Source of the DNA: Candidatus Latescibacterota bacterium
GTDB lineage: Bacteria; Latescibacterota; UBA2968
Length of the DNA stretch: 64,000 bases
Direction of reading: 5' to 3'
Assembly (NCBI GenBank): GCA_965116885.1
Contig: OZ220741.1
Span: forward strand, 5,312,001-5,376,000
In this document: positions 3,768-31,771 of the stretch, in pieces
How positions within the stretch are numbered: the first letter of the stretch is position 1
Layout of the letters: each line of letters opens with the position of its first letter
The notes under the pieces: generated by a model
The model's database searches: none
Told to the model about the DNA's origin: nothing
Seen by the model: only the letters and a program-made list of their open reading frames with translations
Made by a program: the position numbers and the translations under genes

Positions 3768-4337
3768 ATGTTCAACTGGCTCAAAAAACTATTCGCCCCT
3801 CCTATCGAACGCCTGCCGCAACTCGAAATGTTTCGCGATCACCTCAATGACCTACCCGAAATTCAGCAAATCACCGGTTATGACACACGCACCTATCGTT
3901 CGGGGGACGAAGCCGCCTGGTGTCGCATCATGGAAGGCAACGTGGGCAGCAACTGGACAACGGAGAAATGCCGGGCGCAATTGACCAACGACCCCCGCTT
4001 CCAGGCTGAAAACCTCTTCTTCATCACCCACAACGACGACCCCATAGCCAGCGCGTGTGCCTGGAAAACACCCGGCCAATCGCCGGAAACAGGTGAAGTT
4101 CACATGGTCGCCGCGCACGCAGACCACCGCGGCAAAGGACTCGGGCATTTGCTCAACGCCCTCGTCCTCCATCGCTTAAAAGATCTGGGCTATCAAAAAG
4201 CACATCTCAAAACCGATGACTGGCGCCTACCGGCCATCAAAACCTACCTCGACGCGGGCTTTCAGCCCCTCAATACCCACGAAAGCCACCCCGAACGCTG
4301 GGAGGCCATCTTCGCCCAGCTCAAAATAAAAAAATAA
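3768..4337 (+). CDS. GNAT family N-acetyltransferase
   Basis: Motif A HRGKGLG and C-terminal AIKTYLDAGF. Confidence 0.88.
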   Translation: MFNWLKKLFAPPIERLPQLEMFRDHLNDLPEIQQITGYDTRTYRSGDEAAWCRIMEGNVGSNWTTEKCRAQLTNDPRFQAENLFFITHNDDPIASACAWKTPGQSPETGEVHMVAAHADHRGKGLGHLLNALVLHRLKDLGYQKAHLKTDDWRLPAIKTYLDAGFQPLNTHESHPERWEAIFAQLKIKK

Positions 4338-4342
4338 CCTCC

Positions 4343-5089
4343 TCATCCCATCAACGCTTTATACCCTAATCCCATCACCTCCTTGACGTGCTCCAGCGTG
4401 CGTTGCCCTTCAATACGCCCCCTCGCACCGCCCAAATTCAAAATATCGCGCACCAGATCGGGCTGTTCTTCAAAACCCTTGCGACGAATCCGAAACGGCG
4501 TCATAATCTTACTCTGGCCATCCGTACCCTTCAAGCGCGTACCATAAACGCCATCGGGAATGGGAAACACCTCGCCGTAAATCCGATTAAATCGCGCAGC
4601 CACTTCCTGCGCCAGTTCAATATGGGGTCTTTGATCTGGCCCCACTGGCACATATCGCGGACGAAAAAGCAAAATATCCGCCGCCTGAGACACCGGATAT
4701 CCCACAAAACCGTAAGGCACCCGATTCCCCAACCCCATCTTACCCATCTCTTCCTTAACCGTTGGATTCCGCAACAAACGCGGCAACGTCACCAAATTGG
4801 AAAAAATCATAGTTAACTCTGCCAATTGTGGCACCTGTGATTGCAAAAAACAAACGCTTTTTTTTGGATCAAAACCCGCCGCCAGATAATCCAGCACCAG
4901 TTCTCTGACATGATGCTCCAGGTCCTCTGTCCGATCCCGGTGCGTCGTCAGCGCCTGATAATCGGCAATCATAAAAAAACACTGAAACTCATCCTGCATC
5001 TCAAACCGATTCTTCAACGACCCGACATAATGCCCCAAATGCATTTTACCCGTCGGGCGATCACCTGTTAAAACAATTGTGCGACTCAT
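4343..5089 (-). pseudogene. trpS: Tryptophanyl-tRNA synthetase with in-frame internal deletion (248 aa; KMSKS motif and much of the anticodon-binding domain missing)
   Basis: LTGDRPTG-HLGH (HIGH), ADYQALT, GYPVSQAADIL, VPVGPDQ; GTDGQSK is followed directly by C-terminal IMTPFRIRR; RBS aaagga before ATG 5089. Confidence 0.8.
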
Positions 5090-5111
5090 CTCTGTTCCTT
5101 TCTTTGAACGA

Positions 5112-5279
5112 TTAAAAATCCGTAATTTCCAAAAAAAAGCGCGCCACCTTCCGGTAGCGCGCGGTGCAAGCAAACAAAGATCGCCAGATATCCGGTGGTG
5201 GACATACATCTCCCATTGCGCCTGTCCACCACCAGCGTCCGCCAACATTAAACAGCTCTGTCATCGCACTCAAAAACAT
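5112..5279 (-). promoter_or_regulatory. Trp attenuator 2: leader ORF with WWW plus intrinsic terminator (5131-5162)
   Basis: MFLSAMTELFNVGGRWWWTG...; TGG codons at 5234-5226 sit in the hairpin ggtggtggaca/tgtccaccacc; terminator gcgcgctacc-ggaa-ggtggcgcgc-T8. Confidence 0.65.
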
Positions 5280-5292
5280 CGCATACCTACCA

Positions 5293-5467
5293 CAAAAAAA
5301 CCGCCGTCAAAAAGCCGACGGCGGTCAATTCAGAATTTTCAAATAAATACAATCCGTCAGCAAACCCACACAGCGGCACGCCACCAACCACGGACGGTTT
5401 CAGACACACGGGGAGCCAGCACCCTATCGGGCGTCGCATCAGTCAAAATGTGATCGTGCATAATCAT
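5293..5467 (-). promoter_or_regulatory. trpL: Trp attenuator 1: 36-aa leader peptide (5467-5357) plus intrinsic terminator (5293-5325)
   Basis: RBS gggag; MIMHDHILTDATPDRVLAPRVSETVRGWWRAAVWVC*; terminator accgccgtc-ggctttt-t-gacggcggt followed by a T run; alternative ccgtc/gacgg pairings. Confidence 0.8.
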
Positions 5468-5495
5468 AACAAACTCCCGTAATATATCGCCGATG

Positions 5496-5524
5496 AAAAT
5501 AACGACTTCCACACCTCGTGTCAA
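5496..5524 (-). promoter_or_regulatory. Sigma70-type promoter for the trpS leader
   Basis: TTGACA-17 nt-TATTTT on the minus strand. Confidence 0.6.
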
Positions 5525-5539
5525 GCCGTTTGATCTTCT

Positions 5540-7012
5540 TTAGCTCACGAACCGGAACGAATAGAGCTTTGCCGACCGCATCACGACGCGAAGCCGCAGC
5601 GGTCCCCGATCCGTGGGGATCCGGCGGCCGGCCCCCTGCCACGACACGCCTGCCTTGATTGCATTGGCGACAATCGTCTCGCACGTCTTCAGCGTGTAGC
5701 CTTCCACGGGGCGTCCCTCCTCGTCCTGCAGCTCGACCAGCAGCCAGCCGCCCCCGCCACAATCTACATTCAACTCAAGCGCCTGACCGTCGAACGTCAG
5801 CGGCGGTGTCACAAACTCTCCGCCAGAGAGAGACGCATCCGCCGAGACAAAACCGTCCCGCCTCAGGATCGCCCGAAACAGACCGGTATTCCAACCGTCG
5901 CGCACCTCATCATTGTGCCGACTGCCCCTCCCCGAATAGTAGATCCACATCTCGGTCTCGGTAAGCACGGGCCAGACATTGGCCATCACCATACCACCCG
6001 ATGGCCCCCCATCCAGCCCCCGGCGGATAAACGGCTCCCGGTCGCCCTGACGCGACCATATAACCCCATCACGGCTCGTGAGGAGCCGGACGTCCATCGT
6101 GGCCGGAAAATCGGATGCCTCCCAGTGGTAATAAGCGGCCGGCATCATAAAGTACGCATCATCCGCCTCGGGATGTTTGTAAACCGCATTCGTGTAGTAA
6201 TCGATCTGCGGCCTGTCCATTGACCGGGGAGGCAGAGGAGCTTCCAGATCCAGCGCATCCCCCTCCAGGACGATCAGCGTGGGCTGCGACCAGGTCTTAA
6301 AGTCAGGCGACGTGATCCGGCCAACGGACCGGTACCGCTTTCCGAGCTTCATTTCCGCCGCCTCGTCCCGTCGCTGGGTCTCGTGTACCCGCGTATAGCC
6401 GACGTAGAGATCCAGTCTGTCATCCCAGAAGAAAACATTCTGGGTGTCGCACATCTGGTCGGGCGGATTCGGCTGGCCCTCATCATACGTCCAATGGATC
6501 CCGTCGGGTGAATGCATAGCCCAAAGCCCCGGCTGAACACCGGCCTCGATCTCATCATCCCTGGGATAGTACTTCGACCAGAGTCGGTAGCGCGAATCGG
6601 CGGGCGCGCGCTCGTCTATATAGACCGTCGCACCCTGCATGCTCTGACGCTCATCCAGCGGGGCGACGATATTGTTCGCCGTGCTGCCCTGGAACGTGAC
6701 GAGGTGCATTTCCGGCTTCTGCCAGGAAACCCCGTCTTCGGACTCCGCATAGCAGAGACGAACCGCCCCTTCCTGCGGACCGCCCGATTTCATCTGTGCG
6801 CCGTACCAGAGCCGAAAGTGCCGCTCCCCTTCCCGGATCACCGTGTTGTACGCCCCAATCCCGAGCTTCTCCCACGGCTTGTCCGCCCGGAGCACAGGCT
6901 CGGGGGACTGCAAAGGCGGGTTCATACGGAGATTGACACCAGAGACCCGATCAAAGAAACGCGTGTCGATAAAAAGCTGCTTCCGGTTCCCGACATGGAC
7001 TGTAGCGACCAT
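5540..7012 (-). CDS. Five-bladed beta-propeller glycoside-hydrolase-like protein (GH32/43/130-like), uncharacterised
   Basis: QLFID N-terminus, Asp-box-like YAESEDGVSW, SPDGIHW, SRDGVIW; C-terminal LRRDGFVS...LYSF. Confidence 0.65.
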   Translation of the reverse strand: MVATVHVGNRKQLFIDTRFFDRVSGVNLRMNPPLQSPEPVLRADKPWEKLGIGAYNTVIREGERHFRLWYGAQMKSGGPQEGAVRLCYAESEDGVSWQKPEMHLVTFQGSTANNIVAPLDERQSMQGATVYIDERAPADSRYRLWSKYYPRDDEIEAGVQPGLWAMHSPDGIHWTYDEGQPNPPDQMCDTQNVFFWDDRLDLYVGYTRVHETQRRDEAAEMKLGKRYRSVGRITSPDFKTWSQPTLIVLEGDALDLEAPLPPRSMDRPQIDYYTNAVYKHPEADDAYFMMPAAYYHWEASDFPATMDVRLLTSRDGVIWSRQGDREPFIRRGLDGGPSGGMVMANVWPVLTETEMWIYYSGRGSRHNDEVRDGWNTGLFRAILRRDGFVSADASLSGGEFVTPPLTFDGQALELNVDCGGGGWLLVELQDEEGRPVEGYTLKTCETIVANAIKAGVSWQGAGRRIPTDRGPLRLRVVMRSAKLYSFRFVS

Positions 7013-16856: not shown

Positions 16857-18821
16857 TCACTTTCGCACCCATGCCTCGCCCGAAGATAGATCTCGTCCAA
16901 GCGTCCATGTTTTCTCAAAAGCCTCAACAGTCAATTCAACGCGGTTATCTCCAGCGCGAAATACATCGGACAATTCGGCTGCAACGCCGGGAACATCTGT
17001 TCCGCGATAGGGTACAACCACAGTCAAAAACGCCGTGGGTGCCTGCTCGTTCAGCGCAAAACGAAATGCTTTGCGCGGCATGCGAGAACCATAAGTCCAT
17101 GCAAACCAACCCTCTTCTTCTGCCATACACGTCTCGCAATTTGCACCAGCCTGCACCAGCACATTAGCGTCGTCAAATTGCGTAAAGGCACGCCTTCCCG
17201 CCTCGTCAAACACCACATCGCCCGGCGCAAACTGGAAATGCAAATCCAGTTGACCGGGAACATTGCCAATCGCCTCGTCCAAAAACGCGAAAAACTGTCG
17301 ATTGACAAACCACACCGAACGGCGGTGAACCAATCCCGGATACGATCCATTCTCCACCACCAGCACATCGCTATCCGCCCCTTCTGACACCCACAATAAA
17401 TGCCGCCCATCATCGGACGTATCACCGCCATCCAACGTCAAAGTCTGATGCACTGTCGTCTGCCGATGCCACGCGCGGCCTTCTGCATCGTGACCATAAG
17501 TATAAAAACCCGTATCATTCATCAACCAGCGCCCATAAGCGTACAATTCAAACGTCCCATTATCCGGTTGATCGTGGCTCGAAATAGCGGGCGGCGAACA
17601 ATGCAGCGCCATGTGAATCTGATTGGGTCCCCAATCGTCGCGCATCACATACAAACCCGCCTCTTGAAATGCACGACTCTTTTGCTCGGGCAAAAATTCG
17701 CGATTTAGCGTCGCGCGCGCAGCGTATTTGGGATCACCCAGCAATTCCGTAGCTTCGATAAGTGCGCCATAAAGTCCCCACTTTGAGCGATCATCCGTCT
17801 CCTTTAACGAACGCGACCCATCGCCAAACATCGGCGCACCCAGATCGGGCGACGCAATCCAAAAAATATAGTCATACATCAACCGCACGCGCTCGCGAAA
17901 CGCCTCTGAAATCTCAATGTCAAAGGTATCCATGCGTCCAAAAATCTCCACAGCATCTCGCAACACCCCCGTATGATACCCAAAAGACCACTCTCGCTGA
18001 ACGCCATCCGTTGTTGTCTGCGCCAAAAAATTCTCTTCAACCCGCTCCAGTGCCAATTTCATCCACTCACGCGACTCCGCAAACTCGCGGAACGTATAGG
18101 CAATATTGATAAACCCCCGCTGTTCAAACACGGCCTTATTGTGAACCAATCCCATCGGAATCAGCTTTGTCTTAACCTGATGATCGTACAGACTTGCCAG
18201 CAACAGACCGAGAAACTCGGGCGTAAATGCCTCGGCATGAACCAAACTGCGAAATGCCGAACAGATATTCGTCGCCCGAATACCCGTCTGAATATCCAGC
18301 CAGACAAACCCCTTCCAATACGTATAAACGGAATGGGTTTTGGTGTGATTTTCCAGCGGATGTTTTGCAATCCAATCGGTCGTCATCTCCACAAATGTCT
18401 GGGCGTATTTCTCATCGCGCGTCGCAGCATAAGCCTGTACGAGCGGTGCAGCCCAATAAAAGCGATACACAGCCGCAACCCATTCAATATCGCCGCGGGG
18501 ATCCCATTCCCAGTCAAAATCGTCGCCATAACGCGCCTCTTCATAAGGTCCCCACTGAATAACGCGCTGACAAATCTTATCGGCAGTTGTAAAATCGCCT
18601 TCTCCAGACGCCTCACCTATTGGATATTTCGCCCGATAATAATCGCGCAATGCTGTAAGTGCGCCACTTCGACCCCCAGCATCTGCAGCCCGTTTTGCCG
18701 CCTCTAAACCCGTCAGATCTAATTTTTCCAGAATCCGCTCCGGATCAAACGACACCAAAGGCATCTCGTGATCAATTTGATCCGCCCCTTTGGGATACTC
18801 CACTACTGAACTCATAGCCAT
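16857..18821 (-). CDS. Heparinase II/III family lyase
   Basis: DGVQREWSFGYH, PMFGD, GLYVMR, HDQPDNGTFEL, DTGFYTY, HRRSV. Confidence 0.85.
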   Translation of the reverse strand: MAMSSVVEYPKGADQIDHEMPLVSFDPERILEKLDLTGLEAAKRAADAGGRSGALTALRDYYRAKYPIGEASGEGDFTTADKICQRVIQWGPYEEARYGDDFDWEWDPRGDIEWVAAVYRFYWAAPLVQAYAATRDEKYAQTFVEMTTDWIAKHPLENHTKTHSVYTYWKGFVWLDIQTGIRATNICSAFRSLVHAEAFTPEFLGLLLASLYDHQVKTKLIPMGLVHNKAVFEQRGFINIAYTFREFAESREWMKLALERVEENFLAQTTTDGVQREWSFGYHTGVLRDAVEIFGRMDTFDIEISEAFRERVRLMYDYIFWIASPDLGAPMFGDGSRSLKETDDRSKWGLYGALIEATELLGDPKYAARATLNREFLPEQKSRAFQEAGLYVMRDDWGPNQIHMALHCSPPAISSHDQPDNGTFELYAYGRWLMNDTGFYTYGHDAEGRAWHRQTTVHQTLTLDGGDTSDDGRHLLWVSEGADSDVLVVENGSYPGLVHRRSVWFVNRQFFAFLDEAIGNVPGQLDLHFQFAPGDVVFDEAGRRAFTQFDDANVLVQAGANCETCMAEEEGWFAWTYGSRMPRKAFRFALNEQAPTAFLTVVVPYRGTDVPGVAAELSDVFRAGDNRVELTVEAFEKTWTLGRDLSSGEAWVRK

Positions 18822-30305: not shown

Positions 30306-31771
30306 TAAAAGAAAAAATACGCCGATGTGCATTGCTTCTTGCACTACAAGAAACAAATGAGGAAGGAATAGACTCCACCATTCTCGAAAAAGTTTTACCC
30401 GAATGGAGAGAGGACATAATAGCATTACAGAATGCTGAAATCTCCATCAACGTTGAGAATGGTATAGTATCTCTCGGCACACCTGTTGCTTTCACCCTTC
30501 ACCATTCTGTTCCTCCAGAAATCAGAAATCCTGTAAGGGACCTTCTTTATCGTATTATCGATGAGAAAGACGTTGTAAATCCAAATGAAATCAATGAATT
30601 TTTCTATCGCATCAATCCGCACTATTTGAACACCCTTCTTACATCTGACCAAAAAATAAAAAGCGAACCTCTGTACAAGACATCTGATTCATCAGCGCAA
30701 CCTACTCTGAAATGTATCCACTGCGCCGATGCTCCTTGCTATACATATGCAGAAGCAGATACATTCGGTTCAAGTGATAAATCCCCAACGCAAGTCTGTC
30801 CGGATAATCTGGTGAATAAGAAGACTGACGGTCACATATCCATTCAAGTAGAACGATGCACTGGTTGTATGCTCTGTATATTGCGCTGCCCCCTTAATGC
30901 TATCTCTTGGAAGAATGGTGTCGCCTCTAAACACGAGTATGAAGTAGATGAACCTGTTGAAAAACTCTACATTTTGCCTGAAACAAAGGCATCCCTTACA
31001 ATGGAGACATTTCAAATAATTCAGGAATTCGACCTGCCTCTTGCTTACTATGACGATATGAAGAATATACTGGACAATTTTGACAAAAAAGTTGGTCGTG
31101 TAAAATTCAATTGGAATAAAGATCAATACTATCCATTTATCCGGAATTGTTTTCGATTACTGGGACTCAATGCATTATATACAGGTTCTGGCGGGAAATT
31201 AAAACGCTCCGACATCACTATTGATGACCTATTTATGGTTGGTATTGAGGTGAAAAGTCCAGCAGAAGGCCGCATTTCTAAGGAAGCCGTGCGGCAAGCA
31301 TTTGATGCAAGTATTGAGGTGGTAAAGGACAACAAAGATGTCTATTGTGCTGCCATAGGACAAGAATTTACAAGAGGTGTACAAAAACACGCTGAGAGCT
31401 ACTACAAAAGGCACAGGATTTCAATTCCTTTAATCCCAGGTCGCTTTATTCTTTACCTTACTTTGAAACACCAGGATTTTCCGCAGAGTAAACAATACGA
31501 CCTTACCCGTCTTTTCTCACTTGTGGGTGAAGTCTGGACAGACAAGATTCAACAGTATTTTATCGAATACTTCGACATAAGAATAGCGGTACTAAAAAAA
31601 GGAGTGCCGCCTGATGAATTGATAGAAAATTGCCCTTACCAAATCAGGGAATTACTGATAGAAGGGAACTATGAGAGTGCAACGGTGCTATTAGAAGAGC
31701 AAAAAAGGGAAATTTTAGAAGAGATAGGGAGATGTTTTCCACCACCACGCCGCACTGCAAGAGGGCGTTAA
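30302..31771 (+). CDS. 4Fe-4S dicluster (ferredoxin-type) domain fused to a PD-(D/E)xK endonuclease
   Basis: CIHCADAPC...VCP and CTGCMLCILRCP, then RSDITI-x6-GIEVKS...AVRQA. Confidence 0.75.
   Translation: MIKEKIRRCALLLALQETNEEGIDSTILEKVLPEWREDIIALQNAEISINVENGIVSLGTPVAFTLHHSVPPEIRNPVRDLLYRIIDEKDVVNPNEINEFFYRINPHYLNTLLTSDQKIKSEPLYKTSDSSAQPTLKCIHCADAPCYTYAEADTFGSSDKSPTQVCPDNLVNKKTDGHISIQVERCTGCMLCILRCPLNAISWKNGVASKHEYEVDEPVEKLYILPETKASLTMETFQIIQEFDLPLAYYDDMKNILDNFDKKVGRVKFNWNKDQYYPFIRNCFRLLGLNALYTGSGGKLKRSDITIDDLFMVGIEVKSPAEGRISKEAVRQAFDASIEVVKDNKDVYCAAIGQEFTRGVQKHAESYYKRHRISIPLIPGRFILYLTLKHQDFPQSKQYDLTRLFSLVGEVWTDKIQQYFIEYFDIRIAVLKKGVPPDELIENCPYQIRELLIEGNYESATVLLEEQKREILEEIGRCFPPPRRTARGR

Follow-up and report, generated by a model that had tools for sequence, protein, structure and literature searches.

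Two tryptophan-codon leaders in series, each with an intrinsic terminator, precede an internally deleted tryptophanyl-tRNA synthetase paralogue in a Candidatus Latescibacterota genome

Do two tryptophan (Trp) leaders placed one behind the other upstream of a single gene act as two sensors of one signal, and how does such an arrangement come about? The question is raised by a stretch of 64,000 nucleotides (nt), hereafter the window, from the complete 5.56-Mb genome of a Candidatus Latescibacterota bacterium (assembly GCA_965116885.1, contig OZ220741.1, positions 5,312,001 to 5,376,000), in which an original prediction, made from the sequence alone, described two Trp attenuators in series on the minus strand, ahead of a gene for tryptophanyl-tRNA synthetase (TrpRS). 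The parts that it named (a promoter, two Trp leaders, two terminators and a downstream gene) all lie where it had placed them, in the minus-strand order promoter, leader 1, terminator 1, leader 2, terminator 2, trpS-like gene. The serial pair of Trp-codon leaders and the intrinsic terminator that belongs to each are both present and conserved: Trp codons and terminators of both leaders were found in 21/21 loci of the genus (20 relatives plus the window). This conservation is the strongest argument against chance, and the 416-nt leader as a whole folds better than 100/100 shuffles (z = -3.5). The region is a real, conserved regulatory region. We put at about even the chance that it comprises two series sensors of charged tRNA-Trp, each read by the ribosome and each equipped with an intrinsic terminator, ahead of an auxiliary trpS paralogue. 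On this reading a transcript would reach the paralogue only if RNA polymerase passes both terminators; that the two sensors multiply in series, and in which direction they respond, is our inference. Leader 1 is ordinary as attenuators go, and leader 2 and the crippled paralogue behind it are the noteworthy parts of the region.

Leader 1 is an open reading frame (ORF) of 36 codons plus TGA (5357..5467, minus strand; ATG at 5467, TGA at 5359..5357) that is kept in 21/21 loci of the genus. It encodes the peptide MIMHDHILTDATPDRVLAPRVSETVRGWWRAAVWVC, with two adjacent Trp codons at 5386..5381 and a third UGG at 5368..5366, and to judge by its sequence it is presumably translated. Terminator 1 (5292..5326, minus strand) consists of a stem-loop of 12 pairs (5326..5299) followed by a T run, with 99.5% of cells paired in 23 sequences. 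Region 2 of the leader (GCTGACGG, 5354..5361, minus strand), which includes the stop codon and is the putative 5' strand of the antiterminator, pairs with CCGTCGGC (5321..5314). Alternative pairings of the ccgtc/gacgg type had been part of the original prediction, and they are real: CCGUCGGC spans the loop and upper 5' arm of terminator 1, and 98.4% of cells in the 23 sequences allow it to pair with GCUGACGG, a pairing that forms in the stalled-ribosome fold. The antiterminator and terminator helices are nearly invariant, so that their support comes from conservation, with little covariation in aligned columns; by eye, both antiterminator strands change together in the loci L025 and L045 (here and below, L numbers denote the loci of individual relatives, f1 to f4 families, and g1 and g2 genera).

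Folding was carried out at equilibrium with an assumed ribosome footprint; kinetics, pausing and the real footprint are not represented. With the ribosome on the first UGG of leader 1, the minimum-free-energy fold is the antiterminator for as long as the 3' arm of the terminator has not emerged; with the ribosome on the stop codon (UGA 5359..5357, which falls within GCUGACGG at 5361..5354), the antiterminator is blocked and terminator 1 appears. Leader 1 is thus modelled as, and very probably is, a classical ribosome-mediated attenuator of the trpL type. While a ribosome is stalled at GGU-UGG-UGG, GCUGACGG would be free to capture the loop and 5' arm of terminator 1 ahead of synthesis of the 3' arm, and transcription would read through; once the ribosome has moved on to the UGA within GCUGACGG, the antiterminator would be blocked and terminator 1 would form. 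Leader 1 resembles E. coli trpL (RF00513) in its short ORF with adjacent Trp codons and a GGUUGGUGGCG core, in the position of its stop codon in the antiterminator segment, in the 2:3 / 3:4 alternative pairing and in its U-tract terminator. The Rfam Trp_leader model aligns to it over its full length, with that core shared, but remains below threshold, at 20.1 bits (E 0.42) against a gathering score of 41. Leader 1 differs from E. coli trpL also in its 1:2 "protector" helix, which is weak and not conserved beyond chance (the candidate, CCGUC:GACGG, was 86% paired, no better than shuffles, and was rejected), in controlling a synthetase paralogue and not biosynthesis, and in its host, which belongs to a phylum, Latescibacterota, without cultured members. 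An Rfam scan of 4300..5800 at E <= 10 returned four sub-threshold matches (NmsRb, STnc240, Trp_leader and Hrs13), and the T-box riboswitch (RF00230) was not among these.

Leader 2 begins with an ATG at 5279 and the peptide MFLSAMTELFNVGGRWWWTGAMGDVCPPPDIWRS and runs for 55 codons (5112..5279, minus strand), through terminator 2, to a TAA at 5114..5112 that lies 17 nt beyond the T run and is the first stop in frame. It contains three adjacent Trp codons (WWW, 5234..5226; WW or WWWW in some relatives), three Pro codons (PPP, 5201..5193) and a fourth Trp codon at 5186..5184. The Trp codons pair with CCA CCA CCG, that is, with the Pro-Pro-Pro codons themselves, in a 13-bp hairpin (hairpin 1:2, 5192..5235, minus strand) made up of a Trp arm (5235..5223, CTGGTGGTGGACA), a loop (5222..5205) and a CCA-repeat arm (5204..5192, TGTCCACCACCGG). 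Its cells are 93% paired in 26 sequences, and the CCA arm, on the 3' side, shows zero differences across 17 close relatives. A second hairpin, H2' (5176..5213, minus strand), excludes the first: 5213..5200 pairs with 5193..5176 around the loop ACCACC (5199..5194), and this structure arises in folds with the ribosome on WWW. Six pairs of H2' have changed on both sides, compared with 1.6 +/- 1.0 in shuffles (0/500) and 0-3 in slid controls; compensatory changes occur within the genus, and the inner stem covaries between families (U-A in 5, C-G in 6). Terminator 2 (5131..5162, minus strand) is a stem-loop (5162..5139) of 10 pairs, 8 of them G-C, with a predicted energy of -21.7 kcal/mol, followed by T8 (5138..5131); 99.2% of cells are paired, and 2 pairs have changed on both sides in 11 cells, in the lower stem and across families. 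The window holds 3 copies of the run TGGTGGTGG, where 0.63 would be expected, two further copies lying on the minus strand at 17354..17362 and 31739..31747, and a pattern search of the whole genome for further WWW/CCA hairpins found only that of leader 2.

Leader 2 is likely to be translated, as far as its sequence can indicate. Its ATG and Shine-Dalgarno-like site are retained in 26/26 aligned relatives, as is the frame as far as PPPD, which is held also in L045 and L144, whose hairpin loop has one codon less, and in every lineage an ATG or GTG with a purine-rich Shine-Dalgarno-like site stands 9-17 codons upstream of WW(W) despite a diverged stretch. Divergence within the clade is 0-0.11 in the interior of leader 2 as against 0.28-0.33 in the flanks and a gene dS of about 0.17-0.19, a pattern of purifying selection on the element in the window's clade. 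Variable sites are distributed over the three codon positions as 5/7/10 in leader 2 and 11/9/10 in leader 1, with no clear third-position excess in either that would point to selection on the peptide. The original prediction had remarked that leader 2 has no stop before its terminator; the 26/26 aligned f1/f4 relatives are alike in this, and all three frames are open across terminator 2. Where a stop exists in f2, it falls at or inside the terminator (L143, L145). The spacing of leader 2 is fixed in nearly all lineages, with WW(W), 8 codons, PPP, 8 codons and then, 0-11 nt ahead of the terminator stem, a further Trp codon in frame, the steps being of about one ribosome footprint each; in the window's clade this last Trp codon was lost by a 6-nt deletion, and another Trp stands at 5186..5184. 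A third-frame ORF (5086..5232, minus strand) likewise traverses terminator 2, its TGA overlapping the paralogue ATG (ATGA), and is not conserved in the diverged relatives inspected.

The proposed AND gate, which is plausible, needs a response of leader 2 in the same direction as leader 1, and folding predicts such a response solely in distant relatives. The Trp codons of leader 2 form the 5' arm of a strong hairpin that a stalled ribosome would melt, and the CCA-repeat arm, once released, would refold into H2'; in the distant relatives an H2'-type structure would reach the 5' arm of terminator 2 and act there as a classical antiterminator. In f2, L042, L045 and L144 the stalled fold is indeed predicted to extend into that arm. 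Sequestration of the terminator 5' arm before the 3' arm exists, with the ribosome on Trp as compared with PPP, is 0.88-0.90 vs 0.57-0.73 in f2, 0.90 vs 0.45 in L042, 0.88 vs 0.58 in L045 and 0.80 vs 0.59 in L144. It is because of these folds in relatives, and of physiology (the protein encoded downstream is free of Trp, as described below), that we favor a response of leader 2 with the same sign as that of leader 1.

Several features of the window's own clade weigh against such a response. In 4/4 of its members the terminator 5' arm is sequestered at 0.27-0.41 in the stalled state and at 0.26-0.58 with the ribosome on PPP, and the pair probability of terminator 2 is 1.0 in both ribosome states. 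H2' stops 7 nt short of the terminator 2 stem, and a candidate antiterminator (CCGG:CCGG + UGGCG:CGCUA) is iso-energetic with it (-16.9 vs -17.2 kcal/mol) and would, on modelling, form later. The missing stop before the terminator also sets leader 2 apart from leader 1 and from classical attenuators. A pairing of the CCA arm with the top and 3' arm of terminator 2 (CCACC-A-CCGG with CCGG-AA-GGUGG) was rejected as the main mechanism. It could form in 98.3% of cells but does not vary (0 pairs have changed on both strands); in energy it reaches -21.2 kcal/mol, where the terminator state has -35.8; and beyond f1 it is not conserved, f2 and g2 lacking the CCGG half. One indel-type match in L054 (CCGGG with CCCGG) is anecdotal only. 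Also set aside, as physically doubtful, was a helix in which the freed Trp arm would reach across the ribosome to pair with the 5' arm of terminator 2. Alignment and folds indicate that the 6-nt loss from the spacer in the window's clade removed a GUGG segment that joins the antiterminator in relatives; the extension of H2' into the terminator would thereby have been cut, so that the response of leader 2 would be weaker here or proceed by another route. The caution originally voiced, that leader 2 had either decayed or works differently, is to that extent borne out for this clade, in whose folds a ribosome on WWW leaves terminator 2 intact.

The gene that the two leaders precede, trpS2 (4343..5089, minus strand), starts with an ATG at 5089 behind a Shine-Dalgarno-like site and encodes an auxiliary TrpRS-II-type paralogue of 248 residues in which the HIGH motif is kept (HLGH). 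On this point the original prediction needs amendment, for the "trpS" it named is an internally deleted paralogue of that type without KMSKS, and not the housekeeping trpS. The genome holds two TrpRS genes; the housekeeping copy, of 355 residues, lies elsewhere, 14 nt after the preceding gene and without a leader. Against TIGR00233 the paralogue scores 184.7 (cut-off 176.75), covering only positions 2-187 of 328, and by sequence it is a relative of the TrpRS family (TIGR00233 / PF00579), not a complete enzyme. Alignment gives an ancestral form of 332 residues with HLGH, KMGKS and C-x20-C-x6-C-x2-C. From this form the window copy has lost, in frame, 84 residues (195-278 of the full-length form; junction about 4506/4505), and with them KMSKS, all four Cys of the Fe-S-like motif and most of the anticodon-binding domain. 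The gene is shortened in 11/21 genomes of the genus and full in 10/21. Three independent deletions of this region, with differing end points, are present, all in frame, one of them flanked by a 7-nt repeat in a full-length relative; the short alleles do not form one clade in the gene tree, in which well-supported branches force at least 3 changes. Even more degenerate versions stand behind the same leader in f2 and g2.

Over 235 shared codons, dN/dS is 0.105 for short and 0.101 for long alleles, which argues for continued function of the paralogue, although recombination, had it spread the deletion recently, could produce the same picture. All 6 paralogue forms counted contain 0 Trp residues, as compared with 1 in each of two housekeeping TrpRS. 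A Trp-free protein fits synthesis during a shortage of Trp-tRNA, and a back-up gene that requires prolonged tRNA-Trp shortage for its expression makes biological sense. On a further possibility that we regard as unlikely, the sensors switch on a catalytically dead synthetase look-alike and not a back-up enzyme. We entertain it because the KMSKS loop and anticodon part have been lost at least three times in the genus, and HIGH and KMSKS in sister lineages, and yet the protein is Trp-free, selected and always behind a Trp leader.

Other explanations of leader 2 must be set beside two series sensors of the same sign. The lack of any stall-dependent change of fold in 4/4 clade members, and the disappearance of the GUGG antiterminator segment with the spacer loss, both speak for the view that only leader 1 senses Trp in the window's clade and that leader 2 is a relic, a fixed leaky terminator that lowers basal expression or releases a stable leader RNA. 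This we consider doubtful, although it also accommodates a 4-nt duplication that shifts the frame of leader 2 after WRS in 8/26 sequences at no visible cost, and damage to the downstream gene in 11/21 genomes of the genus. A relic should not have kept Trp codons, hairpin, loop and H2' far better than the flanks (0-0.11 vs 0.28-0.33); compensatory changes of H2' inside the genus are hard to explain for a plain terminator, and we take the gene, with a dN/dS of about 0.10, to be expressed and used.

Coupling-type attenuation, as in pyrBI/pyrE, would give leader 2 the opposite sign. Through transcription-translation coupling, a ribosome that follows the polymerase closely would keep the terminator from forming, and a stall at WWW or PPP would permit termination; combined with leader 1, this would confine expression to a middle band of tRNA-Trp charging. 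For the sign and the band alike we see a rather small probability. The spacer is U-rich, the window's clade is without a predicted antiterminator, and in 26/26 f1/f4 sequences the ORF enters the terminator without having met a stop, and here runs through it, any f2 stop being at or inside it (L143, L145); since all three frames are open across the terminator, however, the missing stop says little. According to Elgamal et al. (2016, PMC5021804), polyproline stalling of ribosomes uncouples and allows intrinsic termination, and we count this in favor of coupling. Such control would nonetheless be odd physiology for a Trp-free synthetase paralogue, folding predicts for the relatives a classical antiterminator with the usual sign, and a ribosome freed from its pause at the hairpin would trail by about 50 nt, enough for a 24-nt hairpin. 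It is improbable, in our judgment, that a protein or a tRNA, instead of the ribosome or in addition to it, reads leader 2, for instance through binding of H2' by the paralogue or by the housekeeping TrpRS. The 6-nt loop ACCACC of H2' displays the tRNA-Trp anticodon triplet CCA, and by analogy one might propose, at similarly long odds, autoregulation of the kind known from thrS. The inner hairpin with an RCCACC loop is kept across families with a compensatory U-A/C-G change, and the paralogue has repeatedly lost catalytic parts and is still under selection. CCACC is required anyway, however, as the complement of the Trp codons, neither the T-box nor any other Rfam family matches above threshold, and the deletion takes away most of the anticodon-binding domain that would read CCA.

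We return to the paired Trp sensors and to how they came to stand in series. A covariance model of leader 2 (R1) has matches in 37/151 phylum genomes sampled: 19/19 in g1 plus the window's genome, 26/29 in f1, 8/19 in f2, 1/2 in f4 and 1/64 in f3. Outside the genus, both leaders are found at L025, L045 and L054, and leader 2 alone at L024, L042, L144, L148 and L149; leader 2 precedes every paralogue copy inspected. In f2, a leader 2-like element begins 10-20 nt past the stop of the housekeeping trpS in 5/5 loci inspected and is followed in 4/5 by a degenerate TrpRS-like gene (279 residues in L145, without HIGH or KMSKS), the housekeeping trpS having one classical leader of its own, e.g. MTARGIHSGCWWWHDFNRTGRLTAC. 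The order there (L145, 573..2896, minus strand; also L143, L146, L147 and L151) is Trp leader with terminator, housekeeping trpS, leader 2-like element with terminator, and degenerate TrpRS-like gene; in L147 this final gene is missing and the element is still there. By these comparisons leader 2 appears as the older attenuator, travelling with the paralogue, and leader 1 as an extra one upstream, and history is a simpler account of the tandem layout than design for a sharper response. That the layout arose from an f2-like operon by loss of the middle housekeeping gene is tempting but conjectural. A common origin of leader 1 and the f2 trpS leader was sought with an nhmmer profile of f1 leader 1 and was not recovered: the profile matched 0/9 f2-type loci, while matching L045 (E 8.5e-8) and, weakly, L054 (E 0.018). 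Because it finds nothing in the f2 leaders, an origin by loss of the middle gene is without sequence support.

The transcription unit would start from a promoter of the sigma-70 type (5496..5524, minus strand), with TTGACA (5524..5519), a 17-nt spacer and TATTTT (5501..5496), in all 10/12 matches to consensus. Its -35/-10 pair is retained in the relatives inspected; 4 promoter-like sites occur in 2 kb as against 1.3 +/- 1.2 in shuffles. An ORF of 490 residues (5540..7012, minus strand) ends just upstream of the promoter and matches no Pfam family at E <= 0.001. Elsewhere in the genome, the trpE operon (minus strand, across the contig origin) comes with a promoter and a terminator of its own, and its leader peptide (MNVFATYFWYFWRRFDGRYYYYRRLSKSVVCPAF) is rich in Trp, Tyr and Phe codons. 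Contigs from four RNA libraries (X1, X2, X3 and X5) fall on the locus (4300..5800) at 88-99% likeness, one of them bridging terminator 1 (5233..5479) and another spanning terminator 2 into the gene (4941..5169). At 4506 these contigs continue into the segment that is deleted in the window, and so derive from full-length relatives. As they may include DNA and show neither 3' ends nor levels, they were not used as support. The libraries are coral and sponge metagenomes and metatranscriptomes, and close relatives of the organism thus live in such samples.

Among known systems, those nearest to this locus share some of its aspects. For Streptomyces, Seliverstov et al. (2005, PMC1262725) predicted attenuators upstream of the auxiliary trpS; there, as here, a leader-peptide attenuator stands on a second TrpRS gene and the housekeeping copy is regulated otherwise. 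The attenuator there is single, whereas here two stand in series, and the present paralogue, which lacks KMSKS in this genome, belongs to the TrpRS-II / Fe-S kind. The mgtCBR leader of Salmonella carries tandem attenuators with two short ORFs, one of them rich in Pro codons (Lee and Groisman 2012, PMC3641672), each ORF being coupled, as here, to its own attenuator. Its two signals (ATP and Pro-tRNA) differ and act additively, whereas here both ORFs contain Trp codons and are followed by full intrinsic terminators. In Firmicutes, tandem T-boxes stand on trp operons and aminoacyl-tRNA synthetase genes (PMC12452182). They are alike in lining up two or three sensors of uncharged tRNA-Trp ahead of Trp-related genes, but T-boxes bind tRNA directly, whereas the present locus has no T-box and would sense through translation. 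The closest solved relatives of the full-length paralogue are D. radiodurans TrpRS II (2a4m, 1yi8; E 4e-88) and the [4Fe-4S] TrpRS of T. maritima (2g36; E 4e-80). The latter binds its cluster through C-x22-C-x6-C-x2-C, a motif of the anticodon-binding domain (PMC2954223), and the full-length paralogue has C-x20-C-x6-C-x2-C at the same place; the window copy differs from both enzymes in lacking residues 195-278, with KMSKS and the four Cys. A literature search, with most subscription journals outside its scope, found no description of two serial Trp leader-peptide attenuators, nor of leader 2 in Latescibacterota. Attenuation of the indolmycin-resistant TrpRS1 of Streptomyces has reportedly been the subject of experimental work.

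Leader-peptide attenuation is textbook knowledge in Proteobacteria and Actinobacteria; here it is met in an uncultured phylum, doubled, and on a synthetase paralogue. The comparison across families supplies a concrete history for a tandem attenuator, which is intergenic in one family and directly behind a second attenuator in another. Two oddities stand out. A conserved Trp leader, its frame running through the terminator, has in one clade seemingly lost its antiterminator without loss of constraint, and a TrpRS paralogue is still under selection after repeated loss of the parts needed for charging tRNA, which bears on the origin and role of pseudo-synthetases. If the product is indeed a catalytically dead look-alike, leader 2, with its missing stop, fixed codon spacing and covarying CCA-displaying hairpin, would represent a new attenuator design, and the paralogue would be a Trp-binding or tRNA-Trp-related regulator acting during Trp-tRNA shortage, as HisZ is for histidine.

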